Assembly: GCA_051362555.1 (NCBI GenBank)
Contig: CM120642.1
Coordinates: 4,216,001-4,280,000 of the forward strand
Length of the DNA: 64,000 bases
Direction: 5' to 3'
DNA from: Lingula anatina
Lineage: Eukaryota > Animalia > Brachiopoda
The position numbers and the translations under genes were made by a program. Numbering within the stretch: position 1 is the first letter of the stretch; every line of letters starts with the position of its first letter. The notes beneath the pieces are model-generated. The model was not told the origin of the DNA and made no database searches. It worked only from the letters and a program-made list of their open reading frames with translations. Below, in pieces: positions 35,101 to 64,000 of this stretch.

Positions 35101-35194
35101 CATTTACAAATTAAACCAAAATCAACTCAACAGCTGTTTTCTGGTGTAAGCTGTTCCATTTACCCGTGTAAGTGTGTCTTTTAGGGGGTGTCAT
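29155..35194 (-). CDS. F-box/leucine-rich-repeat protein (FBXL family) with long disordered N-terminus; start codon uncertain
   Basis: F-box ISDLPVEIMHHILSYLTPKELCRYVSPVCRQWHALSRDPALW followed by cysteine-containing LRRs (INLGFCDSV, VNLSHCTGL, LDLTECSEL, LALCWCWNITD). Approximate exons: 33616-35049, 33110-33282, 32472-32642, 31964-32128, 31531-31617, then 31198-31312 or 30792-30906, then 29938-30066 or 29155-29262. A possible first coding exon is 35164-35194. Confidence 0.85.
29938..30066 (-). CDS. FBXL alternative terminal exon B1 (ICDQVVIEVLKKKRNLIAVNCYGDIF...DAR*)
   Basis: Phase-0 acceptor TTGCAG; homologous to terminal exon 29155-29262 (IEDELIVGVIKKKPDLVAVNYYGEEF...). Confidence 0.8.
   Translation of the reverse strand: MCDQVVIEVLKKKRNLIAVNCYGDIFCTHENCILTGCSLDAR
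30514..30751. mobile_element. Tourist/PIF-Harbinger-like MITE, family 1
   Basis: TIRs GGGTGCGTTCAC...GTAAACGAACCC, TAA/TCA flanks, internal inverted arms CTGAATGCAATCAGATT / AATCTGATTGCATTCAG. Confidence 0.7.
30792..30906 (-). CDS. FBXL penultimate exon copy A2 (NLKRLELVGMKVIRG...LVYLDLKACNG)
   Basis: 115 nt, phase 2 in / phase 0 out, AG..GTATGT; same LRR register as A1. Confidence 0.8.
31198..31312 (-). CDS. FBXL penultimate exon copy A1 (HLQFMDLLGLDKIQG...LKFMDLRQCGA)
   Basis: 115 nt, phase 2 in / phase 0 out, AG..GTAAGT. Confidence 0.82.
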
Positions 35195-37079: not shown

Positions 37080-40000
37080 ATGAGTCAAAAACCTGGCAGC
37101 AGACAAGGGTCATTTACCAGTAGACCCCCACCACCCCCGCCTCCGGTTATACCCCCACCACCAGGAACCCCTCCTGAACCCAGATCTAACCCCCCTCCCC
37201 TACCCACAGGGGCTAGTGCAGCACCCCCCTTGGTGCCAAGGAGGAGAGAGTCTTTAGACACTAACAATACAACTGCAGGACAAGGTAATGCATACATGCA
37301 CTGGCATGCCTGTTTCCAAACGTTTGTATATGAGTATACACATGTATACGTATCTTGACATCTGGTGGCATTTTGCAACAGTTATATGTATCTTATAATA
37401 AATTTTTTCTACTTTTGTTTAGGGTGGTGGGTAGTTAATCTTTGCTGACAGTCCGTGTATTTATAAGATATGATTTGATGTCAGTGGACACAAATATACT
37501 GGTTTATCATTTGTTATGTTTGGGAGATCAGCTGTGATTCATGGTCTTGATAAAAGAAAAATAATTTGAAATTTATAAAAAGATGATTACTTATCTGCAA
37601 TGTTTATAAAACAGAAAAATGCATTTTAATGGGAGCCCCTGCATATATCTATGAAACTTAATTTTTTACCGCATGTATATGTTTTCAGGTTCAGGTCCAT
37701 TGAATGATCGTCCTCTAACTGGAAGTCCAAATATATCAAGTCGGAGTGCTTTTCGATCGGTGTCAAGCAACTGTGCCTCAGTGCAATCCACGTCGACATC
37801 CATGACCTCTCCTCCCCCAAGTTACATAGCTGGCAGTGTTGGAGGTGTGGGGAGTTCAAGCCCGGCTACCAGACCAGCCAGTGCATTCAGCACTCTGCCC
37901 ACCAGCTCCCCAAGTCTTCCCTCACGTCCTAACACTAACACCCCAGAGTCCATGTCATCACAACCCAGTCTGAAAGCCAGAGGAGAGGATGCTGCCACTC
38001 TAACACGGACAATGGAGTTACGCCCCAACCTGAACTTGGTGCCCAAAAATCAAGAATCCCACAGTGTCGATTCTCGTCGTGAGGACCTGAGAGGATCGTG
38101 TCTGTATGAAGCGAAGTCCCTTACCCAGGATGCCTTTAAGGTCCTACACGAGTTTTATCAATCAGGTCAGCTGTGTGACCTTGAACTGAAGGTCGGGGAG
38201 AAAGTGTTTAAGTGCCATCGTGTTGTCCTGGCTTGTGTGAGTAAGTATTTCCGAGCTATGTTCACGTCAGAGATGGCAGAGAGTAAACAAAATACTGTGA
38301 CCATCCAGGACATTGATGAGTATGCCATGGAGCTGCTGATCAAGTTTGCCTACACTGGCAAGGTTCTCATAACAGTAAACAATGTCCAGCCCATGTTGTA
38401 TGCGGCATCCATTCTGCAGGTGGAGGCAGTGGCAATTGCAAGTAGCGATTTCATGAAAACACACATGCACCCCACAAACTGTATCGGTATCAGGCAGTTT
38501 GCTGAAGCTCATGGTCGCACTGAACTGATCAAAATGGCGGATAAATTTATACAGGACCACTTTCAGGACGTCGTGGAGGTTGAAGAATTTGTGTCCATGA
38601 CAACAGAGCATTTGGAATTAATTATAGCCTCTCCAAACATCTTTGTTGAATCTGAGATCCAAGCCTACGAGGCAGTAATGAAATGGCTGATGCATGACTT
38701 GGAGCACCGTAAGCAATATCTGGCCAGGTTAATGGCTCATGTGAAGTTTCCTCTTCTTCCAGCCTCGTATCTGATGGGCAAAGTGGAGCAGGAGCCCATG
38801 ATGAAGAAAGATCTGGACTGCAGAGATTATATTGATGAGGCCAAGCATTACCAGCTGTTTTTGTCTGGTGTTTATCCCACTGTTCAACTGTCTGAAAGAT
38901 TACGACCACGGAAAAGTTGTGCTGGTATGCTAACATGCATTTTTTTTTCATTTATTTTTTTTATTTGTTTGATTTATTTTTTATTTATTTCTCTAAGCAT
39001 TTATTCTTATGAGAAAGTTGGCTTTTCATTAGAATGTACAATTTTGTACGGTAAAGTCTTGAAAATTTCGTCGTTCTTGAAAATTTCGTCGGCAGACGAT
39101 TTTCCGCCGAGGTAATTTTTTTCCCCTTGAAAACTTCGTCGACCTTGAAAATGAGGTACTCAATAATTTTTGAAAAGTTCGTCACCAAATATGGCCGCGT
39201 TGTCCAGCTCAAACATGAAGGTAATGCGTCAGTTGATTCAAGACAATGATACGATCAGGATATCATTGCCGATAACACTCTCAATGGGAGATAGGAACAA
39301 TAGTGCGCCCCTGCGAGCGGTTACTCACAATATAAGTGGTTAAGATGTGAATCCCCGTTCTTAATTGCGGGAACATCGGCCTTTTGTCTAAATAGTTTCA
39401 TTACTATTACCTGGCTCAAGGTGCGTTATCAAGCCGGCAAATAAAAGTCACAGGCCGCGGCTTTGTCATTTGTAACGCCGTTATTGTTATCGGCGGCTGT
39501 CCTAAATGAGGAAGACACAATGAAAAATCAAGATATTATCTCGAAGGGAAATGTACCCGTCACTTCTATTCATGTCCATGTTCAATTTAGGACCATTTAA
39601 CAATTACCTGGCTCATCCATGGAGATCGTTCGCAATGCGAATGGGACGATATGGCAATTTTCATAGCTTCAGCAGAGAATCTTTCGCGTAATATTGTCAA
39701 CAGATCGTTCGCGATCCAAACGAGACAAGAAGAAAATTTTCACATTTATAGCAGACTCCGTTCGCGTAAGATCATCAGCGGGAGATCGTTTGCGATCCGA
39801 GCGAGACGAAAAGGCAATTTTCATGTCATCATCGGGAGATCGTTCGCGATGTAAGCAAGAATGAAATGCAATTTTCAAATTAGTGCAAGGAACTTAGTTT
39901 GCAAAAGATCGTCAGCGGGAGATCACTATTCTAACCCCCCCCCCTTTGAATTTAACAAATAATATATATATATTTTCATTTTATCTTAAACCCCCCCCCC

Positions 40001-43000
40001 CTTCCCCGCTCATGGCATATCTTCGGCGGAGAATCGTTCGCGTAAAATAATCATCGCGGGATGGTTTGCGATGTAAGCAAGAATGAAATGCAATTTTTAT
40101 ATTAGTTCAAGGGATTTAGGGAACTTCGTTAACGGAAGATCGTCAGCGAGAGATCATTATTTCACTCCCCCCCCCCCCCCCCCAGACACACACACTTTGG
40201 ATTTAAAAAATATCTTTTTCATTTTATCTTTAAACAGCCCCCCTCCCCCGCTCACGGTATATATTCGGCGGAGAATCGTTCGCGTAATATCCTCAGGACT
40301 TTGTTCGCGTAAGATCATATCAGAGGGAGATCGTTTGCGATCCTAGCTTGACGTAAAGGCAATTTTCATATCATCGTCGGGAGATTGTTCGCGATGTAAG
40401 CAATAATAAAATGCAGTTTTCATATTAGTTCAAGGAACTTAGTTTGCAAACGATCGTCAGCGGGAGATCATTATTTTAACCCCCCCCCTCCCCTTTGAAT
40501 ATTATAAATAATATATATTTTTAATTTCATCTTTAACCCCCCCCCTTCCCCGCTCACGGCATACATGTATCTTCGGCGAAGAATCGTTTGCGTAATATAT
40601 CGCCAGGACTTTGTTCGCGTAAGATCGTCTGAGGGAGATCGTTCGCGATCCAAGCGAGACGAAAAGGCAATTTTCATATCATCATCGGGAGATCGTTCAG
40701 TTTTCATATAAGTTCAAGAAACTTAAATTGCGGAAGATCGTCTGCGGGAGCAATTATTTTAACTCCCTGTAAATTTTTAGGAAGTTACAGATGGTACTTT
40801 TAGAAGGCCTGACATTCAATCCTGGGAAAAGCCCTGCATGCAACAAACGTTGCCAAGTGCATAATTTTTTTTAAATATGTTGCGGCCAGGTTATAATAAA
40901 AGGAGGCAATTAAGCTTATCTTGATCCTTCTCCTCTATCAGGAGGTATGTTTCTTACCGAGAAGATAATTCCCAACACATTTTCGGGTACAGTAAGTTAA
41001 ATTTAACTTAATCGAGATGCAGTAATAAATATATTATTATTTACCACCAGAAAACGACTTAGGAAGTAGTTTTAAATATCCCACAATATAGGAGGGTCAA
41101 AGATAACAGTCGCTAAGGATAAAAGCCCAAAGGCCGGATTTTTGAAAATTTCGTCATACCCAGGAGTCGGGGAGAGGTAATTTTGAAAAATTAGTCGGAT
41201 TTACACAATTAAAAATATTAATTAATTTTTAAGCGACGAAATTTTCAAGACTTTACTGTAAGTATCAGAATATATAAATCTTGAAAGGGTAAAAGATAAA
41301 GAAAATGTGAAGTGTTTGAAAATCATAAGTAAATACTGTAGTCTTAAGGGGAACTATCCAAGTATGATATTTTGATATATTTCCAGGTGTTATGTTCTGT
41401 GTTGGAGGGCGTGGTGGGACAGGTGATCCATTCAAGTCCATAGAGTGTTATGATTTAAGGAACAACAGGTGGCTGACCATCAGTGAGATGACCACCAAGA
41501 GGAGACACGTGGGTGTGGTGTCTGTAGATGGTGAGTAACTGGATATGTTGGTGTGGTGTCTGTGGAATGTGGGTAGCTGGATATGTTGGTGTGGTGTCTG
41601 TGGAAGGTGGGTAACTGGATATGTTGGTGTGGTATCTGTGGAAGGTGGGTAGCTGGATATGTTGGTGTGGTGTCTGTGGAAGGTGGGTAGCTGGATATAT
41701 TGGTGTGGTGTCTGTGGAAGGTGGGTAACTGGATATGTTGGTGTGGTATCTGTGGAAGGTGGGTAGCTGGATATGTTGGTGTGGTGTCTGTGGAAGGTGG
41801 GTAGCTGGATATGTTGGTGTGGTGTCTGTGGAAGGTGGGTAGCTGGATATGTTGGTGTGGTGTCTGTGGAAGGTGGGTAACTGGATATGTTGGTGTGGTG
41901 TCTGTGGAAGGTGGGTAGCTGGATATGTTGGCGTGGTGTCTGTGGAAGGTGGGTAACTGGATATGTTGGTGTGGTGTCTGTGGAAGGTGGGTAGCTGGAT
42001 ATGTTGGTGTGGTGTCTGTGGAAGGTGGGTAACTGGATATGTTGGTGTGGTATCTGTGGAAGGTGGGTAGCTGGATATGTTGGTATGGTGTCTGTGGAAG
42101 GTGGGTAGCTGGATATGTTGGTATGGTGTCTGTAGATGATGGTAGGTAGCTGGATATGTTGGTGTGGTGTCTGTGGAAGGTGGGTAACTGGATATGTTGG
42201 TGTGGTATCTGTGGAAGGTGGGTAGCTGGATATGTTGGTGTGGTGTCTGTGGAAGGTGGGTAGCTGGATATGTTGGTGTGGTGTCTGTGGAAGGTGGGTA
42301 GCTGGATATGTTGGTGTGGTGTCTGTGGAAGGTGGGTAACTGGATATGTTGGTGTGGTGTCTGTGGAAGGTGGGTAGCTGGATATGTTGGTGTGGTGTCT
42401 GTGGAAGGTGGGTAACTGGATATGTTGGTGTGGTATCTGTGGAAGGTGGGTAGCTGGATATGTTGGTATGGTGTCTGTGGAAGGTGGATAGCTGGATATG
42501 TTGGTATGGTGTCTGTAGATGATGGTAGGTAGCTGGATATGTTGGTGTGGTGTCTGTAGATGATGGTGGGTAGCTAGATATGTTGGGGTGGTGTCTGAGG
42601 AAGGTGGGTAGCTGGATATGTTGGTGTCTGTAGATGGTGGGTAGCTGGATATGTTGGTATGGTGTCTGTAGATGATGGTAGGTAGCTGGATATGTTGGTG
42701 TGGTGTCTGTAGATGATGGGTAGCTGGATATGTTGGTGTGGTGTCTGTAGATGATGGTAGGTAGCTGGATATGTTGGTGTGGTGTCTGTAGATGAAGGTG
42801 GGTAGCTGGATATGTTGGTGTGGTGTCTGTAGATGGTGGGTAGCTGGACATGTTGGTGTGGTGTCTGTGGAAGGTGGGTATGAATAATGGAATTAAATAA
42901 TGTTGCTGTTTTCATTCAAATTTGTGTCCTAGAATTCAGGTCAAGTACTGCACTGGGCATGGACTTTTTTTTTTCAAAAAACGTTTATTAGATGATTTGG

Positions 43001-46000
43001 CCTTGTTTATTTATTTCTGTTCTGGTTTTCAGGTCTCCTGTACAGCATAGGTGGTCATGATGGTAATGAACACCTGAACAGCTGTGAGGTGTTTGACCCT
43101 GTGACTAATAAATGGAAAGCCATTGCTTCTATGGCAACATACAGGTAAATGCTGCTTACAATTTTGACTATAAAATGCATATCATGTAATATCTTCAGTG
43201 GAAGAAAAAAGCATCTGCAGCAGCAATTTAAACTATATCTCTAGTACATATAATGAATTAGCAAAGTCAGTACTAAGCTGTAAAGAGTATATCTAAGCAG
43301 ATTATAATACAGATGTATTGATATCAATTATGTGTAATAAAGTTGCTTAGATTTCACATGAGATGCTTTGTATTAAAAAAATAAAATTTGATTGTCACTT
43401 AAATCATAGAAAAGATTTTTTTCTTCTTATTTAAAATTTATTATTATTACTATTTATTTTTTTTATAATATATTATTTTTAATATTATTTTTGGTGTGTA
43501 CAGACGTGGTATTGCAGTGGCTTCCCTGAATGGTCCAATATATGTTGTTGGTGGTCTTGATGACTCTACCTGTTTTAATCAAGTGGAAAGATATGATATC
43601 CAATCAGATTCCTGGAGTTTTGTTGCCCCGATGAACACTCCAAGAGGTGGTGTTGGTGTAGGTGCTCTTAAGGTAAAGATGTTTTGCAAGAGATTGCCAT
43701 ACCTGAAAAGTAAATCTGAGAAATTTTGTCCTAGGTTTCCCTATGTATTGAAACCCTTTAAAGGGTTTGCTTCATGCCGTCAGAATGGCCTGAACGGAAC
43801 ATATTCTTCAGAAAACATGCCCAACTAACGATATCTTTATCCAAATACACAAATTAAAAGCTCATTTGGTAAATTTTTGGCTTTAAAAAACGTCCTATTT
43901 GCTCGGCCTGGGAGTTAATGAGCTACGTGGTCACGTGGTCCAATGACGACAATCGAGCCACTGGAGAACAGAGCGTGCTTAGCTGTCAAACTGAGCTGCA
44001 TTGTCTACCTGTAAGATGACTTCTCTGGCTTCTGATAAAAGTTTATACTCATTCAAATCTCTTACCCGAGGGGTCTAAATCCTCGTGAAGCTGTGTAAAA
44101 CCATTTCCCGTCTAGTCATTTCTTTAACAAGCATTTCATTATGGTTATCCCAAGTTGTATAAAACACTGCATTTGAATGAGTTAAGGGAAATGTTGATTA
44201 TTGCATATGAGGTCTATGTTATTTGTGAAATTCAATTTATTTTATTAAACCGCTGACACTCCGTCTTGCATACTTTTATTAAACTGAGGTAAACAATGCC
44301 CGTTACCTTTACAAGTCCTATCTTAATCATCCATCTACCTGGAACTTCCTTTACCTCTTAATTAGAGGGTTAAATGGCATTCAATTTGTCTTGCTTGTAT
44401 CGAACGCACTCTCTATCTAAGCTTTACTCCAGTTATCTCAGGTAAAAATCTACCTGTGCGTTAGTTACAAAGCGCAGCTCCCGTAGACCTGGGGGTACTA
44501 GATAAAATCTGAACACCAGGTTTATCGAGGAGCTAGAGAAAGAAAGGAAGAATTTTTCCTGCACAACTTCATAGGAATTTTAACACGGACTTGATCCAGC
44601 TTAGACCTCCAAACTAACAGGGTGACATGGGCAATTTTCACAAACAAATCATAAAACTATATTTCAGTTAACCGCCTTTAAAATAAATATACCGTTCTGG
44701 GTAAATTAAAATAGTTATTAAATCGCAAGAATATTTTTGACTTAAATGATGATTTTATTATTAATGGAAATTAAGCTACTATATGAGGTACATTTGCTGT
44801 GATTACGCTGTCCTTCATGTTTTGCGTAAGTCTACATTTTGCTGTATGTGCTTGTAATCTTTTTAAATATGTGCGTACAATTTTTGCAGGTCTGGTTACC
44901 CCCCTGTTATGTGATGAGAGTATTAATTTGGCAATTAGTTCCTTAGCTTATTTGAATAGAATTGCAGTGTAAAATTTTCAACAAGATGTTGGCGAAATAG
45001 CCCATTACTCTTTGTAGGTATTTCCCCCGTCAAAGTTTGTCTAAAATTATCTTTCAATCTTTACTCTTTCAAAGACAGTATAAAGTTACCTGACATATTT
45101 TCGTGTAAACTTAATGACAAGCCAAGTGTCTCCAGTTCATTCCGTACTCAATTTTACCCAAGCAAATTTTTTTCTTGAGTAGATCTTTATAGCAAGGTGT
45201 TATAAGCTTACAAATATGCAAAAAAAAATTGCGTACTGACGCAGAATTTGCGTTTCAAGTTATAAAATAATCAATCTTTTAAATAATTTAATATTTCAGA
45301 TGAAATAATCTTCAGAAACAAATCCTCAAAGCATAAACGAATTAGGATAACGAACCATTTTATTATAGAAGTTCCCATTTTTTCTTTAATATAACGCTCT
45401 TTTTCCTGTTTTTCCTCAACACGTTTTCTTCCACGGAAGCTTCAAGATACCCTGAGAGCAATTTCTTTTATTAATGTTCGCGACCGTGTTTGAACTTAAT
45501 TGTTTAAGTATTGATATTTAACGTCATTTACAAATACCAAAAAAATAACCCCATGAAATAAATGAGATATATTGAAAAATATGAAAGCCCACCAAGACGA
45601 GTTTCATACCTGTTATTACCTGGCTTGGGAATTGCAGCGGTGCATTTAACAGGTTTGTTGTAAACGAGCTTTTGGTCAACTACAATGCATTTAAAATGCA
45701 TCAGCAATCAGTAAGTTTGCCAACTGATGACAGTTAATCTGAAAGACTACCAGCTCTTGATATGATCTAAACCACCTGAGGTGACCATGATCTAGAGCAT
45801 CGCAACTATTGTCACCGAAGTTAGTAAGTAAGTCACGGAAGACCGTCACAGACAAAGAAAGATTGTCAACGAGAGCTGCAATTTTGGTGAATCCCACGGC
45901 AACACACCGAGGCATAACGAAAATTCCTCAACTCCGTTCAACACAACTTTCCTTAACTTCTAAACTTCCTAACTATGCACCATGCAGCTCAGTTGAGTCT

Positions 46001-49000
46001 CATAGACCTTTCTTTATCGTGATTGTCGTCACAGTACCACGTGACCCAGATCTGTTGCTTCATTTTTGCATATTGAGGTGAGGTTTACTAAAACGCTTTT
46101 TTTCTAGTAATAGATTGTTTTTATAATTTTTAAATGGCGGGGATCGATTAAAACATACCTCTAGTGTATAGATTGAGTGCTGTATCTTCAAAATTCGAGA
46201 AATGGATTTTTACATGAACATTGTCCTTTAAGTGTAAAAATGCATGTTATGGACAAGTATTCAGAGGTTGAATTGGCAAGATACATCATTTGTCTTATAA
46301 GAAAAGTGACCTACATGATAATTATTTTGTTTTTCAGAACATGCTGTATGCCGTAGGTGGGAATGATGGCACTACTTCTCTGGACACATGTGAGCGCTAC
46401 GACCCACATGTGAACCGATGGACATTTGTGGCCAGCATGAAGAAGAGACGAGCAGGAGCAGGGGTGGCAGTCCTGGATGGATATCTCTTTGTTGTGGGTT
46501 AGTATTATAATAGGTTGATGTGGACAACATGTCTGTAATTTTTGTCTGTTTCTTCCATTGAGGTATTTACTAGTTGTGTAATTTTGTATGATATCATTGT
46601 GTAATTGGTATTGGTTTTTGTCATTGCAATTAATGATGATTTATTTGTCACATAAAGAACACCAAGTTCATTTTTGTACCATGCCCATGTTTGCCTCTTA
46701 AGAAAATTAGTTGCAGGGCCGAAAGTTCAGCCATCTTGAAAAGTAGCTGGCTTGAATGTCTGCTGGGTGGGAAAACTTCTCAGCCCGTTCTGAAAGTTTT
46801 CAGCCCCGGGCAGATGGTCCAACCTTAATTTCTAACACTCTTCATGCCTCAATTTTATATGACTGAGGCAAAACCGAAAAGATTTAGGTCATTCAACAGT
46901 TATCATGGAAAATTACTATGATTAAAAAAGGAAAAAGGTTGACGTTTGAAGTAATGTTTTGGCATCAGTTACTACTTTCTCTGCATGTATTAAATGAATT
47001 AGTCTAACACCACAGTGATCAGTTAATTGATTATCAAAAGTCAACAAGTGACTAACAAGTCCTGTAATGTTGCACTTCTGTACTTCCAGGAGGATTTGAT
47101 GACAACTCTCCCCAGGACTCTGTGGAAAGGTACGACCCTGTTACCAACACATGGGAGGTTTTAACTGTCATGTCACGGCCACGAGGTGGCGTTGGTGTAG
47201 CTGCACTTGGTGGAAAGATTTATGCAGTGGGCGGTCACGATGGAACCAATTATTTGAATTCTGTGGAAGCCTTTGATCCCATTTCAAACAGGTACATGTG
47301 TATATTTGTTGACAACATAATAAATTAATGTAACTGGATGAATTAACTATTAAGAAATAGATAGAAGATGGTGCATATACTAGTCAGTGTATTAGTATTT
47401 CTCTGGATTCTAAATAGGCCAGCACACACTCTGAGCTACCAGCTGAGCCATTGATCTTGCACACATTTGAGCCAGCAGCTCTGTGTGTATTATGAAGTGG
47501 CGAGCTTTTTTGTCTCATACCTTCTGAGGCAAAGAACTCAGTAGAGCTGAAGTGCCAAGAAACTGAGGCTGTAGCTCACAATGTGTGCCAGAATAAACTT
47601 ATAACTTGTATGTGGAGGCTCTTGTTCCCCTCTTTAACTCTCCTCTTCCAAACATAATTCATGAATTATACAATAGTCAAATAACTCTGTGCTTAGTTCT
47701 TTTTCTTCTTCCGTCTCTGTCTAATAGTATCCTGTGTCTTCGTCTTTGTTTTATGTATGTCCTGCTTAATTGCTGATGGGGTTCTTGTGATGTTAATTAC
47801 ACAAAAAAACTTAGGGTTGGTGTTCTTAAAGGGAATAACTTTGAGCATAAGATCCAAATTTAACCAGTACATCCACACGTATGACCAAATTATTTTACAT
47901 GAGTCCCAACAAACAATGTTCCTTAAATCTCTTCTTTTGTGTTGGAAATGGCCACTTTTAAGAAAATTACCCCCTTTTTCTTGTACAGGTAGGGTATTCT
48001 TTAAGTAGTGTTGAGTACACTGGGTCACATAATCCTGTTTAGTTTTGATTCTAAGGCCCCATTCAGAATAGGGGACTAACTAGTCCGAGGGTCAAATATG
48101 GCCAACCCACTTCAATACTTTCCCATGAGATATCTACTCAGTGTCTATTAGATTAAACGGGAAGCTTTGTAGTGGGTTGCCATATTTGACCCTCAGACTA
48201 GTTAGTCCCCTATTCTGAATGGGGCCTAAGACTTGTGATCTTCTTTCAATTGTTTATTCCATCTTATATGCCGTTGAGTAGCTCTTTATTCAAACCAGAT
48301 ATGGTGCTACAAGAAACCGAGAGGCACAGAGCGTTTCAGTAACTGATATTGATGGTCTAGATTGATATTTATTTCCCCCAACCCTAAATGAATTGACAGA
48401 ATATATAATACATTCAGCCAAGGCATACATGTCAATTTCCATTACTGTATAAAAATAATAGCTTTGTCTAGATTAAATAAGTAACAGTGGTAAAACATTT
48501 ATTGGAATACATGCACTTTGAATGTAAATTTCTTATATTTCATTTCTCCTTTTCTCTGCCTTTAACAAGTGATGGGATATGATTCTCTAATTATTTTCTC
48601 TAATCTCAGGTGTACTCATTATTCTTATATATGATTCAATATGAATGGCCATGATGATAGTATGGATTACGACAGTACAATATGCTTTATTCATATTATA
48701 GTGCTAATTGTTAATGTACTATTTATAGTTAAAATTAGTATTGTAAAAGGCCTTTTTACATTGAGAATTATATCTAAGGAATACAGTTGTTTTGATATGT
48801 TTTTAAAGATTGACAACTTCGTAGCCTTTATGCTACAGAATAGAGTACAAAAGGAAATTGATATTAACTAATTTAATAAAATTAAACTAAGCCCCCACAC
48901 TCAACACAGCCAACTGATTAACTTCCATTTAATAAACAGCAGGAAGCAAAGTCCCCTCTAGTGCAATGGCATGTTAGAACTTTTCAGAATATCAGTGCAG

Positions 49001-51117
49001 CTGTATCGTTAAGATATAAGATTCAATGTGAGGAGGCCTGCCGTAGTATCATATTCCAATGTGTTGTTTGTTAAAGCTGGGACAGTGCGGCAGGTGTACA
49101 GAGTGGTCGCGCAGGTGCTGGTGTCACGGTGGTGGACTGCCTCATACACAGCATACGAAAGCAGGATAAACTTCACTTATCCTCTACAGGTACAAGGAGC
49201 CCGACCAACCCCCCTTCCCCCACCCCCACCCCCACCCCTTTCACTTGTTTCTGGTTTTTGATAACATTCCTGTATTTTCAACACATAAGCTGCATTCAGA
49301 TATGGCTGAAATATCAATTTATTTCCTCATTTTTTATTGCAATGTTAAGATTATTTCACTGAGTCTTGTGTTACATGCATAGAGACCCCAAAGTATCTCA
49401 AGCGTCTGAATTTCTGGTCACTGTGGTTTAATATGATTATCTGAAGACGGTATTTTCTACCACATAGTTCAGCATTAGAATTTATCTAAGTGCAGCTGAT
49501 GTTTTTTTTTCTGCTCCCTCCAAATTCCATAAAATTTTTCATTTTAAGATGTGATGTGCTGTATAAAATATGCCTGTGTTTCTTGGTTAAATTATCCCAT
49601 TCTAAATTAAAACTCATTGTTTTCCCTAAGATGTATGGTTTATTCCATGGACCTTTTCCTCTTTTAATCACTTTATTAAGTTTTTATGAAGTATTTTAAT
49701 ATTCATGTTGTTAAGATATCTTTGTGTAAAAAGGCTTTGAATGTTTGTACATTTCCCTGAAGAATAGTTAAAATAACTATTCAAATCTAAACTAAATTTA
49801 CGTCATACATGTTTGAAAAGCAAATGTCATCAGAACAAAAATATGATAGTGAAATAGTGTTAAGATTCATAAAATGCAACAAACATATTGTGATACATTT
49901 TTGTTTTGTCTTGTATTAATTTTTTTGTGAATCGTATAGGAGATCTATTAATATATGATGTTTCCAAGTTTTTATTTATTTATTTATTTTTATTTTATTT
50001 TTTTATTTTTATGAAGATATTCAAATGATTTACAAAAACTGAAATATTGGACAGCAAATAAGTCAATTTCCTCTTCGATGAAACTTACACAACTTGAAGC
50101 AAATGAACAAAAATTCAGTGAAAAGCAACATAAAATATGAAATAGATGATTGGATTTTTAAAGTGATTTTGTTATATAAATGTCAGCAGTATGGTTGGAA
50201 CAAGCTCTTTCCCCATCAGCTAACACCAGTGTTATTTGGAATGTTGCTCAACCCAGTACAAGGGGCTGTGGCATTAGTTTTAAAAAAAAAGCATGCATTC
50301 CTTCTTCTTCACTGTTCATAACCTTTGTTAAGTAGACTCTGCCATTTATGTACCAGGGTTTCAATGATGGGAGCTTGATGCATTTTTTTCTCTGACAAAA
50401 GCAGAAAAAAATTGGTTATTTCCCAGTCACTACAAAATTCTTGTATATTTATTTTGATATTTCCTATTTGTTTCATGAAAGTGCATCAAGGACCCTTAAA
50501 AGTTTGCACAGAGCTGACCTAATGAAAACCCTGTGTACATTATTGCTTTTAGTTAGGCATGGAAAGGGTGGTTCATGCTAAAGATGACAAAGGGGCACGC
50601 TTAGTGGACTCAATAATTTCAACAATTTTTCTCTAAAACACCAAGGTATACTCTTCAGGAAACAATAGGGTTGACCTCAGTGATTAAAGGCAAATTGCCC
50701 AATTTAAAAAAAATGTTTTTTTTTTGTTTTTTTTTTTTTTTTTTGTAAAAATAATTATAATACATTCCTTGTATGTGTAGTGTTTTCAGGAGCAAAATAT
50801 TTAATTTAATAGCAAGTTGTTTATCTGCATTTAGTAGCACAGCTATCAATCCATCTTTTCCATATCTACCACTGTTGATGTTATTTTATACCAGCTATTA
50901 CAGTAATTAATTATTTCAAGTAGTAGGCTGTTTTTATTGTGTACGTATATACTCCTATGCTTATTGTTCACTGTGAAGCTAATAACATAATAACAGTATT
51001 TTTAATTGATGTTTTTAGTGAAATGGTCAGCTTCAAAATCTTGCTTCTTAAGATGCTGTTAGATAATGCATGAAATATAACAATGTATGTAGACAGTTTC
51101 ACTATTTGCCTGTTTTT

Positions 51118-55518: not shown

Positions 55519-57679
55519 ATGAAGGTTTTCATCCTTTTGGTTGCTTGTGTGGCGTACGCCAGCGCAGGTATTTGTGAAGACGTGTGCAGTCCTCTGTGCA
55601 AAACTGGCGCCACGGCAGCCGGCGCTGCGATCAGTGGAGGCACCGCGGCCGCTGCTGCTGGCGCCGCTGGAACCGTTGTCTGCGGCCCAAGCTGCAGCAC
55701 GGTGTGTGACCTGGGCGGTAAAGTGGTGGACTGGGTCGGCGGTCTCTTCGGCAAACGCGACCTCAATGAGGGATGGGTCACGGTGAGTTTGGACTCTTTT
55801 TTTTTTTTTTTTTTTTTTTTCAGTATAATTCAATTTCAGTATAATCTTTGGCACAGTGTATTTTTTAGTATATTTTTTTCAGCAAAATTCCATCAAAGTG
55901 AAATTTCAGTATAATGTTTTTCGGTAAATTTTTTTTGGCATTGGATGCAGTGTCTTTTTGTTTCGAACGGTAGATTCTTATCTTTTCCCGATCTCTAATA
56001 GGTCTTTCATTAATATTGTTTAGTGAAATTAACGTATTTTAATACGTGGTTTTATTTTTAGTATTAAAATATAACTTTTGCTGTTTTTTTTTTCGACAAT
56101 TAAGCGCCACGAGAAATCACGTCTCGGTCTCTGACACCGTAAAGCATTCCTCATTAGGAGTGTTCCAAACAATTTATTATATTTGTTTTATTTTAAACAT
56201 GCACAACAACATGTATGTATATTTAGTGCATCTTGTTGTGGGCACATGTATTTACTTCGTTCAGTGATAACAAAACTGTTTATTGGTCCTGCTAGTACAA
56301 TTCTACCTGGATAAAAAAAACCCGTTAAATGCTTTCTTCTAGAATTGATTGTGCTTTTCATCTATTTATTCAATTTAATTACGTCATTTCTATATATAGG
56401 TCAGGACCTGGGAATCTGTCTTTCCACGTGCCTTCTCTGCTTACGACACCAACAAAGATGGCCTTATCTCTCACAGAGAGTTTGTCAACGCCATCAGTGC
56501 TGAAGTGAGAGACCTGCAGACACTGAGAGTGTTCAAGATGGCCGACTTGGACGGTGAGTAGAACACAGAACCCTGACTACTGAATTAAAAGGTCAAAATA
56601 AGGAACTAGACCCGCTTTGAAAAAAAAAGCACCTCGCTGAATATGCACAACCAGTGATTTGGCAGAGTAATATCTGTGAATATCTTGTAAGCATAATTTC
56701 ATCTGTGGCCCTGGAAGAGGGAAATTGTTTTGGCCATATTTTGTTGTACCTCATCAAGGAGGTGAGAACGACGACACCCAATCTGAATCAGGGCCAAACA
56801 GATATGCCAGGCATATTTCTGTAAACCGCACTAAGACGCAGTGTAGTGCGGTATGCAAGAACCAGACATGCTTTTTTTACTTTACTTCATGAGTAAATAC
56901 TCACAGTTGTATTGAGGTTGGAGGTGTTGAAATTTATTGATATTTTTGTATCAATCATAATTTTTGTATCAATCACAATTCCAACTCCTCCGCTGGGTTC
57001 ACTAAAGCCAGTGTGTCTGGTAACCAGAATGGCATGTCACGATTCTGTTCGCGTGGCTGTCACTGGGATAAAGATATTATACCCAAGTCATGCTTTCTGT
57101 GAGAAGAAACCACATGTGTCCTGTAAAGTAGTGCGGTCACTACGCCCACCTTTCAAATCGCCCACACTCTTTCCCCGTGTTTTGAAGGCCAGATAGTTCT
57201 TGATAGGTTCGCCGAATCAGAGATTAATTTGGAGAAACGACATCATTGTGAAGTCCAAAGAAAATTGCTAGCTTAGGACAAGAACGGTTTCACATATGAT
57301 GCTTTGTAACTAGAATGACTCCTTCGCTGGCTTTTGAGTTAAAAAACACTAAAGCGCCTTCGGATATGTAAACTTTCAGACCAAAAAACTGTTTGGTCAG
57401 TTCTAGTGAATATTCCGCCTCAAATTTTCCTTCTTTTGGGGACGCACCGTAGATCAGTATAAAGTCTGGAAAAGCATGTCTGGTGACCAAACAATAGGGG
57501 TATCATTAACTTAAGTTATTACATTTGCCTTAAAAACGCGCTTATCAAATATGTCTATAGTTACACTTATTTCTGTTAAACATTGATTACTGTAATCAAC
57601 TGAATCATTTTGTCCTCCAGGTGACGACCACATTAGTCCTGCAGAACTCAGAGCCGCTCCATTCCGCTTTGGGCCATGA
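55519..57679 (+). CDS. Secreted prepropeptide 1 (158 aa): signal peptide + Cx3Cx3C/Ala-Gly-rich/Cx3Cx3C amidated core + two-EF-hand C-terminal pro-domain
   Basis: Exons 55519-55782, 56400-56553, 57621-57679 splice in frame. Signal MKVFILLVACVAYASA, core GICEDVC...DWVGGLF, GKR site, EF loops DTNKDGLISHRE and DLDGDDHISPAE; AATAAA near 57746. Confidence 0.9.
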
Positions 57680-59650
57680 ACTTCGGGACATTGAAGATCA
57701 GCAATTCCTTTTTTCTATTTTGGCTGACTGTATTTCCTAACAGCTAATAAAGGAGTTCTGTTTAACATACATGGTTTAATTAACATACATTGATAATCAC
57801 TTTAGGCTTTGAGAGCTGTTTTTTTTTTTTTTTTTTTTTTTTGGGGGGGGGGGGGTAACTTTCGTTCAAGACGGTTCTTTATCACGCTCGTGTTATGATA
57901 GGGAGGATGAAAATAACTCAACCAACTTCAAATCATTTTTTCAAAAAATTATCAGTCATAATAAACATAATAAACAAAATTTCACTGTATACTTATATTG
58001 TATAAGGTACCCATGACGTTGCCTCTTACTCCATTTCTTTATAGTCAAAAATATCCTCCATAATACTACCGAGATTTAATATGAAAAAAATGAGGTGCTT
58101 TGGAGGCTCTTAAATGGTGGCCCTCTTTTATACTGCCTCGTTCTCGGCCCAATGCAAAATCAATTTTCCTAGCAGTGCAGGGCAGGATCAAGGTCACACT
58201 GTACATTAAAGTCAAATTATAATATTTTGATAAGTTTGAGAATGAATTCATAAAAGCAAGTGCCCGGATTTATGATCTCCGGATTCTAATGCATTGGTCT
58301 GTTGTAGCACCCAGTATGTAGGTAAAAAAAGAGCAAATCTTGAGACTCAGGAATGTCGTTATAGTTTGCAGGGTTTTTATTTTTCAAAATACGCTTTAAA
58401 AGTGATGCCACAAACTAACAAAACTGCAGTATAACCCATGATAGTTTGCAGAAAGTTTTTGTGGATTTGAAGCTTGTGTAATGTTTGAAACGAGAAAGGA
58501 GCGAGGAGAAAGTGAGAAAGGAGCGGATAATGTTTTTAGAGTTAACGAGTTAATTGACATACTGTCATAATACTAATACAACTGCGGGTAATGTCAAAGG
58601 GAGAAGGCCACTAGATATTGAAAGAAGTGGAAAGAGAAATAAATAGAAGCGGGCACCGGAATCAACTGGAAAGTAGTTAATAAATGACATGAAAATATAT
58701 AATTGTATTTACTACCTCATGTAACAGCAAAAGATAAACACAACAGCTTCATCACACCTGTGTAGTTTTTAGGGTAATTAGACCCTTGTTTGCAAGGTTT
58801 TTGAAATACAGCTTAATCAATATTCCAAACTTCGAAATGGTCTTTGCTTAGGGTGTGCCTCTATAGTCCAAAATTTTAATGATCCATTTACAATTACAAT
58901 TACAGGATTAAGCGGTTTTCCTTTCATGTAGGACCGCCATATTTAGGTCGCGGCCTTACTAGCACTCGGCTCTTCTCAGTCTGAATGGTCCCTATGACTG
59001 GTTCCGTGGCCCCATAGTTCTTTTGTCTGAATCTTTCTATATTTTTCAGAGTATTTAGATCTAGTGACTCAATAACAAAATCCATGAAGAAGGAATAGTA
59101 TCCACTAGAGATGATGTCCAAAGAAAATTTTTTAATGGAACTCAGTCGGCTGTCAGATAAGAACATCTTTGGTCTAACGTGCCTTCAAATCCATTCTTAT
59201 TTGAAGGGACTTTTCCATTCTTTTTGGACCAATGAATCTTCGGATGAATAAACTTTAGAAATGTTGAGACGCGCCAGTTTACACAAATATCACCTATAAT
59301 AAACAATTTTAATTATTGATAAAAGTGATGTAATATTCGAAAATAGATGGCAACACCTACATTGAAAAATAATTGATAGATAAGGCGAATTCTCGTATTT
59401 TGATGACCATTGGGTGTATTAGGAAAGTTAATTACAACGGGCAGCTCTTCAATAAATCTTGTAAAACTAACATGTATTTGACCTCAGAAGGTCAGGGTTG
59501 CATCCGTTTCTTAAGTGTTACACACGCGTGGTCGTGGGACGTTTGCATCTTGACAGAAGACGTTTTTATTCATCCAGCTTCGGGTCCATCACAGTACAAA
59601 CGTTGGATCGGAATGTGCATAACAATTGACTGAGTCTCTGTTGGTGTCCA

Positions 59651-59711
59651 TATAAAAATGAGGACTTAGATAGAGAAGTAGTGACTCCCGTCTACGAAGA
59701 GCCCGCATAGA
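59651..59711 (+). promoter_or_regulatory. TATA box and short non-coding first exon of peptide gene 2
   Basis: TGGTGTCCA-TATAAAA at 59651; donor AGA|GTAAGT at about 59711; same layout as gene 1. Confidence 0.6.
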
Positions 59712-60230
59712 GTAAGTAATCTAAAACAATAAGAAAAAGGATTTATCGGTTTTTCACCGATTTATTTGTGAACCACGTAATATCATGTAATGAGGTATTA
59801 ATCTGACAGTGGAGAATTTCTGATAGGTGTTGGATTTTTTGCGTAGAGTAAAAAAAAAAGTTTTTTTTAAATTAGCTACTAATGTGAATTTCGTAAGGTG
59901 CATATTGTAACTCTTATGTCGTAAAATTATATATATTTATATTTAAGCAACTTAAATACATTTAATCAGAAAACTTCGAACTCAAAAGCTGGTTAACATG
60001 GATCGTTAATTTGTCCACGTTTTTGGATATGGTAAACTTTTTTTTATTGTATAAAGGCCTATTGCTCATTATATGCCTTGTAGTACAACATACATTTATG
60101 ACATTAATTGTGTTGTAAAATTCTTCATAATTGTTTGCATATTGATATGTTTGATGTAACTGTAACCAAAATATGATACTATCCTACCCTATGTATGTAT
60201 TTATTTATCATCAACTAGAACGATAACGCC

Positions 60231-61828
60231 ATGAAAGTTTTCATCCTTTTGGTTGCTTGTGTGGCGTACGCCAGCGCAGGTATTTGTGAAGAGGTCTGCA
60301 GTCCTCTGTGCAAATCTGGCGCCACGGCAGCAGGCGCTGCGCTCAGTGGAGGCACCGCGGCCGCTGCAGCTGGAGCCGTCGGCGGCGTAGTCTGTGGCAC
60401 GAGCTGTGACAAGGTGTGCGACCTGGGCGATAAAGTGGTCAGCTGGATCGGAGGTCTCTTCGGCAAACGTGATGCACCACATACATGGGTGGTCGTAAGT
60501 GTTTAATGACTAACAGGCCCATACCTTAAATATCCACTCAACAATATTATTACGTCTCCCATGACGATTCTTTGATTCTCCTGACTGCTATTCAAGATCC
60601 GTGCCGCATTTTTGCATACCGTAAAGTTGTCGTCATACCTAGGTCAAAAACCGAATCCACTAAAATGTTCACTATATATATATATATATATATATATAGT
60701 GCCGTAATATGCTGGTTTACAATAAATGGTTCTTTGTATGCCAAAGGTTATTATCACAAAGTAAATGGATTCTTGCTTTTTAACTGGAAAAATGTTATTG
60801 TTTGTGAGAGGCGGCCTCCAAGTAACAAAGGCATGCCAGTTGTTTTTCATTTTAGTGTTAAGGGCATAAACTAAATAGACGGTTTTAAGTGGTAGTTCAG
60901 TGACCCACAGTCCCATTAATTTGGGATTCTGCACCTAAATCAAACTTTCAGCTGGTTCTCTGGTTTGCAGGTTGCCCATTGGGAGGGTGAATTCCCAAGA
61001 CATTTTAACGAGTATGACACCAACAGAGATGGTCTCATCACTCACAGAGAATTTGTCAATGCCATCAATGCTGAGTTGAAAGATGTTGCAGCATTGAAAG
61101 CTTTCCATTTGGCCGACAAAAACGGTAAGTGGGCCAAGAAACAGAGGGACAATGCGTCTTGGTGCTATACTTGACTGTTTTTGATCTTAACTTCCCCATT
61201 TGTAGCAATTATTGCAGAATGTCCATATTGTTCAAATCCCCTCACAAGGAATTCGCTTTCAGACTTGCAAACAATGTGGAGCAATTTCATGAAATGACAC
61301 AATTTCATGAAATAACGTTTATTTAAAATATGCAAGATTCCAACAGGTTTGGTTTAGTCACTCAAGCTATTGCACAGATTCCAAAGGTACCCTCGCTGAA
61401 TGCAAGCAGATTGACAGCCCAAACCGCCCCCTCCTGCTGGAAATTACACGAGAATGTTGGAAACAAAAGGAGGCGTGTTAGTCTGTTAATCTGATTGCAT
61501 TCAGCGAGAGACCCCATGGAGCTAGGACAATAAATCAATTGTGTACGGGCCCAAAGTTTTGTGAACAAAATTACATGTATTAATTTACTTTGATAAACTT
61601 CCACTTTACTGTTCTACAGATGGACGTTGTCAATATTTATCGTTACTGCAGCAGTATACTGTAATGTCAGTAGGTATACACCTTTATACTATCCAAGGAT
61701 ATTGAAAAAGAAAACATTTATTGAATCAACATGCATGTATATTTCTTTTTTGGTATTTCTTTCAAGGTGATGACTACATCGACAGAGATGAACTCAAGGC
61801 TGCCCCCTTCAAGTTTGCAAAGGACTGA
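60231..61828 (+). CDS. Secreted prepropeptide 2 (159 aa), tandem paralog of 55519-57679
   Basis: Exons 60231-60494, 60971-61124, 61767-61828, with the first two coding exons the same size (264, 154 nt) and phase as gene 1. Core GICEEVC...SWIGGLF-GKR; EF loops DTNRDGLITHRE and DKNGDDYIDRDE; AATAAA near 61901. Confidence 0.9.
61390..61520. mobile_element. Remnant of MITE family 1 in an intron of peptide gene 2
   Basis: Inverted arms CTCGCTGAATGCAAGCAGATT / AATCTGATTGCATTCAGCGAG shared with 30514-30751. Confidence 0.55.
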
Positions 61829-64000
61829 AGAAGAACTATTTGAGGAGCATTTAACAAAATTTTCTTTCTCCAGTAATAGAAATATCAATGTGGTTAGTTG
61901 AATAAAATCAATAAGATACACGTTTGGTTTCTGACTTAAACATGCATTTAATCTGGTTGCAGATCCATGACAATTGCGCTTCGTTGTATCATTTTCAACC
62001 AACAAAATCATTCATATATCGAATCGATATGTTGCTTTTCGGTTGGAAAAAACTAAAGTGACTCAGTAACATGAATTTAATATCGCTGTAATCGACCAGT
62101 ATATGTCAAACTTAATATGTGCACCTTAATTTTACATGTAAGAAAATAGCTTCACAAGTTTTTCCAAATTTAAGGATATTGTCACCCTTCGCCCAAAAAT
62201 CCTTGTTTGGATAATGAATAAATCTTCAGTGTTCAATGACTAAAATAATTATCATTATTCACACATTTGTCATCTTAAAGGTGACGTCATGATTGCGACT
62301 TGGGGTAAAAACTAGTTTCTCAAATTTCTCTTTTACCTAAGCACCCATGACCACCGTTTTAACGCCGATTTAATGACACTATTTAGTACTCAAGCACACT
62401 GCATGCTGAAAAGTCTTAGTTCAGCTTTTGTCGTTGATCAAGCAAAATAATACCATTGTTTAATAAAAATCTGTAATAAGGGGCTCATAACTCTACAACA
62501 AAAACATTTAAACCAAAATGACGAGATTGTACCCTATACACTCCTGGTCACCTTTACCAATTTTTGTGATAAAATCTAGTTCATGGATAAAGTTACGCTC
62601 CATACCGTTTGTTATCTCACCTTAAAATAGAAAGGTGTATAAATGAGTTGCCTATGCTTATACATTGCCACAAAAATATAATACACTGATATTTCATGTT
62701 TTCCAGGTATTTTCATTATTTAAAATCAGCACAGATATAGATGCATTACTGTTCATGAATAATAAGACGCAGGAAAAATATCTTTTTTGCATCTGGATGA
62801 TAATAAGGGGTTCAATAACCTTAAACGCGTCTTTTTAAAAACAATTTAAGTTAGGCGCCGTTTTTATCTCCACACCGTTGTAATTTTCAGTCTTTTGTTA
62901 ACATCTTTCAAAAAAGATTGGGTTGCCGATAACACGAACGCTTGAAAAAAATATATATGACTGCTACACGAAAATTTAAAACAAAGTTGTGTTTTAATAT
63001 CCCAACATTGCCCTATGGGATACAAATTGAGAGATTAAACATACCAGGCAGTTTATTTGCTCAACTTTTTCTCAATAAAAAGTGGATGTTTGGCCAGGCA
63101 CGATATAGGTTAGGCATTGCCATTGTTGAAAAGTATTGATCATTCTGGGCTGTAGTACAGGGGACCATTTGTGTCCCCATGATTTTCTTCAGATCCACTT
63201 GGTTGGTTTGACACAATAGTAAGAGGCAAGTCAAAAAACTGCTGAACCGCCACCACGAGCAACTGTTTTCACAGTTTCCAGAAATTGTTGCACAAACATT
63301 ACATTAAACACGAAGTTAGCCATCAAAACAAAAAACTTCAAGAAGGAATGTCAATTTATCAGAAAATCTGACATGTCACCAATGAACTTAGCAAATTACT
63401 GTAAATAAGTTGATGGACCCATTAAAAGTGCAGTTCATTCTTTGTTGGGTCATAAGAGATTTCTTTTGTGGTCTGCTTTACCAAAGGTCATCACTGAGGA
63501 TCCTGCCATTTACTGTTCCTCAGAAAAAAACAGGTTTTGACAGGCTGTTGACACTTAATAACAGAAGTTGCTGACAATGCTCACTCCTTACTACTACATA
63601 TCTGGTAGAGCATAAGGTCCTCTGTGGCGCTGTTACCTTAAAGATACATACAAAGTCAACTTTTTGTCATAAAAACCAACCAAATTTATATGCCAGCATA
63701 TAGTTTCAAGTAGTATAACTAAGAGAATTACCAAAAGGCATTGTTTAATTTTACCAGAAAGTGATGTTTGAACAGATTTTTCTGCTAGCATTCTATGCTG
63801 TATGTCAATGGGGCAGAAAAGAAGGTCACGAAAGTAGGTTAAATTGACAACCAAAAGTTTAAAGAAAGGAGCACTCTAACGCTCTTTTATGGCTGATCGG
63901 GTGATTTATTCAGTTTATCCCTTGGCATGTCGAATTTATTAGAGTCGTATACGAAACTAGTAGAAGTGGTTTACATGTGTTACTGGGAATCAACGCTCCA

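Follow-up and report, generated by a model that had tools for sequence, protein, structure and literature searches.

Structure of two tandem precursor genes

A stretch of 64,000 nucleotides from the brachiopod Lingula anatina (GenBank assembly GCA_051362555.1, contig CM120642.1, positions 4,216,001 to 4,280,000), here called the window, carries two genes in tandem on its forward strand for what appear to be precursors of secreted, cysteine-rich peptides. Gene 1 joins coding exons 55519-55782, 56400-56553 and 57621-57679 into a product of 158 residues, and gene 2 joins 60231-60494, 60971-61124 and 61767-61828 into one of 159. All four introns have GT-AG borders, with phases 0 and then 1 in each gene. 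The spliced product of gene 1 is identical to RefSeq protein XP_013384729.1 (P0001), annotated merely as EF-hand-like. RefSeq holds three more distinct L. anatina proteins of the same type, and gene 2 is closest to P0004.

A first-pass annotation of the window, made by a model from the letters alone, had described each product as a 16-residue signal peptide, a 61-residue cysteine-containing core, Gly-Lys-Arg, and about 80 residues with EF-hand loops. Splicing bears this layout out, with a 16-residue signal-like leader, the core, the tripeptide and a further 78 or 79 residues in both genes. The predicted signal peptide of gene 1 (55519..55566) is a hydrophobic leader ending in Ala-Ser-Ala, as judged by eye, and that of gene 2 (60231..60278) is identical to it at all 16 residues. 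The predicted mature peptide of gene 1 (55567..55749) consists of a Cx3Cx3C cluster, a 27-residue Gly/Ala loop, a second Cx3Cx3C cluster and a 14-residue amphipathic tail; that of gene 2 (60279..60461) matches it at 50 of 61 residues. Cysteines occupy positions 3, 7, 11, 39, 43 and 47 in both cores, and the computed side-chain charge of each is -2, as estimated earlier. The amphipathic character ascribed to the tail also holds by calculation, with moments of 0.465 and 0.494; among 5000 shuffles, 0.18% and 0.6% attain these values. At sites of the Gly-Lys-Arg type, prohormone convertases make the cut, the new end is trimmed, and PAM (peptidylglycine alpha-amidating monooxygenase) forms the amide. 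The predicted convertase and amidation site lies at 55750..55758 in gene 1 and at 60462..60470 in gene 2, and the rest of coding exon 1 encodes the start of a pro-domain linker (55759..55782, directly before the GT donor, and 60471..60494).

Coding exon 2 of gene 1 (56400..56553) encodes an FP-x-x-F-x-x-YD motif, the first EF loop (56445-56480) and the start of the second; coding exon 3 (57621..57679) supplies the remainder of loop 2, an E-L-x-x-A-P-F-x-F motif and the stop codon. In gene 2, loop 1 and the start of loop 2 are encoded at 60971..61124, and the remainder of loop 2 with the stop at 61767..61828. The two 12-residue loops, which begin at residues 104 and 137, are therefore present as first described, but they do not sit on separate exons, since loop 1 is contained in exon 2 whereas loop 2 is interrupted by intron 2. 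In both genes exon 2 scores above the cut-off of the Pfam model EF-hand_1, and exon 1 of either gene has no Pfam match at E<=1. Past each stop codon lies a candidate polyadenylation signal AATAAA, identified by pattern alone (57746..57751 and 61901..61906). Gene 2 may have a promoter and a first exon that is non-coding within 59206-59717, upstream of its coding exons: the region holds a kappaB-like GGGACTTTTCC (59206), a TATA-like site (59651) and a donor-like GTAAGT (59712), although these are matches by pattern alone, made without a chance control.

DNA-level alignment between the two genes is confined to coding exons 1 and 2, and nonsynonymous divergence (dN) is lower than silent divergence (dS) both in the core (0.11 vs 0.34) and in the EF part (0.31 vs 1.87). 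Together these observations indicate a gene pair under constraint rather than chance reading frames. Silent-site divergence is uneven along the coding region; it is 0.10 over the signal peptide and, there as in the core, far below that of the EF part. The DNA likeness of 55519-55760 with 60231-60472 ends inside exon 1, directly past Gly-Lys-Arg. Both patterns could have arisen if gene 1 and gene 2 underwent gene conversion or exchanged the peptide module.

A family of peptide precursors with an EF-hand extension

A profile built from five Lingula records was run with hmmsearch over 1.84 billion representative sequences and returned 1095 matches at E<=0.001. Most of the best 150 of these, which were examined, are generic EF-hand proteins, but at least seven are non-Lingula proteins that combine a leader, a cysteine core, a basic site and an EF pair (one of the seven, P0135, is an incomplete sequence without the leader). 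A second profile round, from a 14-row alignment, gave at least 29 proteins at E<=1e-8. The set analysed comprises 32 proteins, after fragments or frame-broken sequences (P0183, P0186, P0188, P0189) and near-identical cluster members were left out. Its named members are the four from Lingula, XP_064604097.1 (P0029) from the chiton Liolophura sinensis and CAB4014420.1 (P0126) from the octocoral Paramuricea clavata. The proteins with short cores are 40-73% identical in the alignment to the Paramuricea protein, from which we infer that they are cnidarian host genes. Gly-Lys-Arg follows the peptide in 30 of the 32; the exceptions are P0117, with Gly and four Arg, and P0101, with Lys-Arg and no Gly. 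The earlier suggestion of a new family is thus supported, and over a wider range than claimed, from brachiopod to chiton and octocoral.

Membership of the chiton protein follows from its core, which matches the Lingula cores beyond the shared cysteine frame: for four of four queries, none of 3000 shuffles with cysteines held fixed reached the observed score, and the pairwise comparison with a Lingula core gives E 3e-9. Against five relatives from outside Lingula, the Lingula core is 22-40% identical. In two metagenome loci (L001, L002) a single unbroken frame runs through core, basic site and EF pair, within AT-rich DNA poor in open reading frames, so that the joining of core to EF-hand part is independent of the splice model used for the Lingula genes. 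The other 16 of 18 metagenome loci considered were dropped as generic EF-hand proteins (<=37.6 bits).

The family emerged only in the full HMMER scan. When exon 1 and P0001 served as queries in word-index searches, only Lingula proteins came back. In the ESM Atlas the whole protein matched generic EF-hand clusters alone (<=0.82) and the core had no usable match, while a PDB sequence search found EF-hand proteins alone among the best 60 of 347 matches and nothing under E 1 for the core.

Two further observations concern individual members. P0101, from Logan, is a secreted-looking protein of 301 residues with a Gly/Ala-rich cysteine core, Lys-Arg, and two tandem EF pairs of the family type; its core compared pairwise with that of Lingula is not significant (E 0.20), so it is tied to the family by its pro-domain and general look only. 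P0093, P0170, P0174 and P0206 each give 65682 for the longest contig, which suggests that they form a tandem array of different peptides.

The cysteine frame

The pattern Cx3Cx3C..Cx3Cx3C is exact in 18 of 31 cores, where the inner loop spans 2 to 27 residues. In six cores, cysteines are shifted or additional. Five cores retain four cysteines in register. Three of them (P0149, P0167, P0176) have lost C2 and C5, and two (P0178, P0180) have lost C3 and C4; the missing cysteines are replaced mostly by aromatic or beta-branched residues, and the five proteins occupy about four separate branches of the pro-domain tree. Loss in mirror pairs supports a nested pairing of C1-C6, C2-C5 and C3-C4, the three-disulfide arrangement predicted in the first-pass annotation.

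The same annotation had seen a resemblance to bacteriocins and halocins, and the core could be imagined as a halocin C8-type peptide that was acquired from prokaryotes and joined to an EF-hand gene of the host. Both Lingula cores do match TIGR04449 (halocin_C8_dom) over residues 2-50, at E 0.004 and 0.002, and share with that domain cysteine clusters flanking a hydrophobic Gly/Ala stretch. These scores of 18.2 and 18.8 bits, however, fall below the cut-off of 24 and may reflect Cys/Ala/Gly content, and the chiton protein has no TIGR04449 match at E<=1. The halocin domain is prokaryotic and comes without EF-hand or Gly-Lys-Arg, whereas the cysteine frame of the Lingula cores is common to animal relatives, and no prokaryotic relative was confirmed in GTDB genomes (0/283 and 0/600 pattern matches) or plasmids. 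Acquisition from prokaryotes is accordingly extremely improbable; the true relatives are animal.

Charge and fold of the cores

The short cores, of about 27 residues, are net positive in 26 of 26 cases, with a median of +5 (the boundary drawn for P0176 took in leader residues). Arg, Tyr, Trp and Val abound in them, their Gly turns are tight, and they look like beta-hairpin antimicrobial peptides of the tachyplesin type. Tachyplesin precursors have Cx3Cx4Cx3C spacing and Gly-Lys-Arg followed by an acidic tail, and we know of no EF-hand in the precursors of tachyplesins or polyphemusins. The mature peptides have two disulfides, against the three predicted in the Lingula family; as amidated cationic disulfide hairpins, in the available text of PMC10608444, they otherwise have the look of the short family members. 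The Lingula cores, at 61 residues, near-neutral and Gly/Ala-rich, are neither short nor cationic in this manner. Lingula and chiton cores share a loop of 26-27 residues rich in Gly and Ala, with a best 19-residue hydropathy of 1.37-1.47, and by these sequence features the two are an odd branch of the family, long and near-neutral.

A second comparison is with the turgencins of the ascidian Synoicum turgens, described in the available text of PMC7024374 as antibacterial peptides with six cysteines paired C1-C6/C2-C5/C3-C4, an amide and a helix-loop-helix tendency. They share the six-cysteine ladder and the amide with the predicted Lingula peptides, but are about 36 residues long and cationic; the comparison covers the peptide only, the genes being uncharacterised in that text.

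A helical hairpin, as first proposed for the core, is not supported. AlphaFold2, given the aligned relatives, models two beta-strands, with a predicted local distance difference test score (pLDDT) of about 65 there and 51 overall, although the relatives in the alignment may have biased the model toward strands; given Lingula rows only, it returns helices, at pLDDT 27-40 over residues 11-80. Prolines sit between the cysteines of the Lingula core, so that the fold could go either way. A beta-hairpin, which is also what the short relatives look like, would be the better of two unreliable models. A fold search with this weak core model gave a best Z of 2.5, which is meaningless, and a model of the complex of core and pro-domain, made without an alignment, scored 0.00.

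The EF-hand pro-domain

A profile was built from 26 family pro-domains, excluding those of Lingula, the chiton and P0101. It scores the four Lingula pro-domains at 53.6-65.8 bits and P0101 at 44.1, while 141 other EF-hand proteins reach at most 38.1. Because those 141 were picked for their likeness to Lingula, the control is conservative. The motif E-[FL]-x-x-[AGS]-P-[FY]-x-F after loop 2 occurs in 30 of 32 members and in none of the 141, and a proline motif ahead of loop 1 in 31 of 32 and in seven of the 141; both motifs were derived from the family alignment itself. The chiton model (P0029) carries 11 inserted residues close to its end, perhaps through a splice error. In 29 of 32 members the pro-domain bears a net negative charge, which would suit masking of cationic cores, although EF-hands are acidic anyway.

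The first-pass annotation had drawn an analogy with mytimycin, and the layout is indeed common to both. Mytimycin precursors have, in the available text of PMC8004829, a signal peptide, a cysteine-rich peptide, a dibasic site and an EF-hand extension of about 75 residues whose role is unknown; the Lingula precursors likewise place a signal-like leader, a cysteine-rich peptide and a basic site before a C-terminal EF-hand extension. The peptides differ, with about 12 cysteines in a dense array around a conserved central block in the mytimycins described there, and six in two Cx3Cx3C clusters in Lingula. Compared by eye with the four isoform rows in that text, the Lingula family also differs in having Gly-Lys-Arg, where mytimycin has no Gly before its basic run; in carrying the FP-x-x-F-x-x-YD and terminal A-P-F-x-F motifs, which the mytimycin EF part lacks; and in a spacing between loop starts of 33 residues rather than 35. 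The best reading would be that the Lingula precursors are analogous to mytimycin without being one, kinship of the EF parts having been compared by eye alone.

Another functional parallel may be BRICHOS, which in polychaete precursors is placed ahead of the peptide. It is the pro-domain of arenicin, alvinellacin and capitellacin, where the Lingula family has an EF-hand pair, and the 25 Pfam families listed when 29 of the members were scanned do not include BRICHOS. In the available text of PMC10608444, BRICHOS is a conserved folded pro-domain that carries variable disulfide hairpins, and chaperoning or masking is the role given to folded pro-domains of defence peptides.

Possible function of the predicted peptides

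Processing of the Lingula precursors is very probable. We lean somewhat toward reading the two genes as host-defence peptide precursors, cut at the basic pair and amidated, that would release a hairpin with three nested disulfides, directed at microbial membranes. The leader would direct the precursor into the secretory route, and the core may form disulfides C1-C6, C2-C5 and C3-C4; a convertase, followed by a carboxypeptidase and PAM, would convert the Gly-Lys-Arg end into a Phe-amide. Until cleavage, a calcium-loaded EF-hand pair might aid folding, sorting or masking, as BRICHOS does in polychaete beta-hairpin precursors. Short cationic relatives would bind anionic membranes through their charge, whereas the near-neutral Lingula and chiton peptides might insert the 26-27 residue Gly/Ala loop into the membrane, with the amphipathic tail of the Lingula peptides as a surface anchor. 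A variable peptide on a conserved carrier, together with many paralogs, fits defence, and a role against microbes is moderately probable.

Several observations weigh against this reading. Between the two genes of the window the core has a dN/dS of about 0.33, which speaks for conservation rather than diversifying selection. With a net charge of -1 or -2, the Lingula and chiton cores depart from the majority of membrane-active defence peptides, so that an acidic pro-domain cannot serve them as a charge mask. One four-cysteine core (P0181) is out of register and another core (P0171) has three cysteines. The chiton pro-domain scores 34.4 bits, within the generic EF-hand range, and in the pro-domain tree the split between the 33 family rows and 30 generic EF pairs is weakly supported (79/69), so that a single origin of the family EF-hand pair is compatible with the tree but not proven. 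Only six of the 32 members are named, leaving the taxonomic range to stand on three species, and the literature searched gives no activity data for any member. Finally, all four RNA runs searched out of nine listed, with 6-30% of each covered at 92% likeness (44.5 million records), gave no exon reads; these runs came without a positive-control gene in the stretch, and with tissues and genotype match not given, and the absence argues only against high, broad expression in those four samples. The RNA reads landed only on short intronic or intergenic repeats, and short dispersed repeats at 58899-58979 and 61468-61521 attract reads from other loci in all four runs.

Narrow expression, which the missing exon reads would fit, is one point in favor of peptides that act on receptors, as neuropeptide, hormone or pheromone, where the EF-hand pair would help with sorting into granules, as it does in precursors of the nucleobindin/nesfatin or snail HCS2 type. 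Gly-Lys-Arg is also a standard neuropeptide signal, and the near-neutral Lingula core is under purifying selection and conserved with the chiton. A snail gene for presumed neuropeptides along with an EF-hand has been reported, to go by its title (Bogdanov 1998). The peptide, however, is the variable part of these proteins, as the low identity of the Lingula core to its five relatives illustrates, and paralogs are many, unlike the case of receptor-bound neuropeptides; we therefore regard signalling as unlikely.

A use of the peptides against animals (predators, foulers or competitors), as toxins or deterrents with the EF-hand part as a storage pro-domain, seems quite unlikely, since Lingula is a suspension feeder with no venom that we know of and the composition of the short cores resembles antimicrobial hairpins. 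Some encouragement for it comes from octocoral nematocyst proteomes, which include disulfide-stapled hairpins with C-terminal propeptides, intronless multigene families and an EF-hand 'calglandulin' (PMC11896702), and from CjTL3, an EF-hand toxin-like molecule of a sea anemone (PMC5673964). The available text of neither paper describes a cysteine peptide joined to Gly-Lys-Arg and an EF pair. The nearest entries, octocoral U-GRTX-Esi20/21 and acrorhagin-1, are helical disulfide hairpins from intronless paralog families, with a C-terminal propeptide in Esi20. The available text of PMC11896702 mentions no EF-hand for them, but they may overlap with the Lingula family.

It is very unlikely that the protein instead belongs to the shell or extracellular matrix, as a secreted EF-hand protein that binds calcium and carries a structural peptide rich in alanine, for the short cationic cores are not structural in look. 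Lingula, Liolophura and Paramuricea do all biomineralise. Moreover, the Lingula shell matrix contains novel alanine-rich proteins of 100-200 residues (available text of PMC4595640), and every lophotrochozoan shell proteome examined includes EF-hand domains (available text of PMC13425148). None of five RefSeq accessions appears in the 2026 comparative shell-proteome supplement of PMC13425148, although a control accession can be found there 13 times; the EF-hand proteins entered for Lingula in that one data set are different ones, and the result is a lack of detection only. Two motif strings were not found in the 2015 supplement of PMC4595640, which may not print sequences.

Other features of the window

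The upstream neighbor at 37655-49140 reads, by eye, as a BTB-kelch gene, and one of its introns holds a tandem array (41512-42880) in which a 38-bp unit recurs about 36 times. Open frames named by eye resemble an intronless rhodopsin-type receptor (11551-12576), an adenylation-domain exon (12677-13090) and an F-box protein (33578-35110).

Implications

The precursor family is real and appears so far undescribed, no description having been found in the literature searched, a scope that took in neither the greater part of subscription journals nor the paper of 2018 on Lingula immunity. Its genes have been filed as generic EF-hand proteins, and no comparable brachiopod peptide was found in that literature. 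The conserved pro-domain exposes short, synthesisable, amidated hairpin peptides in soft-coral-like sequences and ties them to long, neutral ones in brachiopod and chiton, so that the role of EF-hands in defence-peptide precursors becomes testable over natural peptide variants of opposite charge. More speculatively, and we think it rather doubtful at present, the superfamily may predate the cnidarian-bilaterian split, with one dedicated EF-hand pair serving as a cleavable chaperone, switched by calcium, for a whole library of amidated peptides of the disulfide-ladder kind. In corals these would be tachyplesin-like cationic hairpins; in brachiopods and chitons a long Gly/Ala loop would have been inserted, giving neutral, bacteriocin-like peptides that insert into membranes. 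Were this ancient-superfamily reading true, the pro-domain would offer, as BRICHOS does, a handle by which to mine many new peptide antibiotics.

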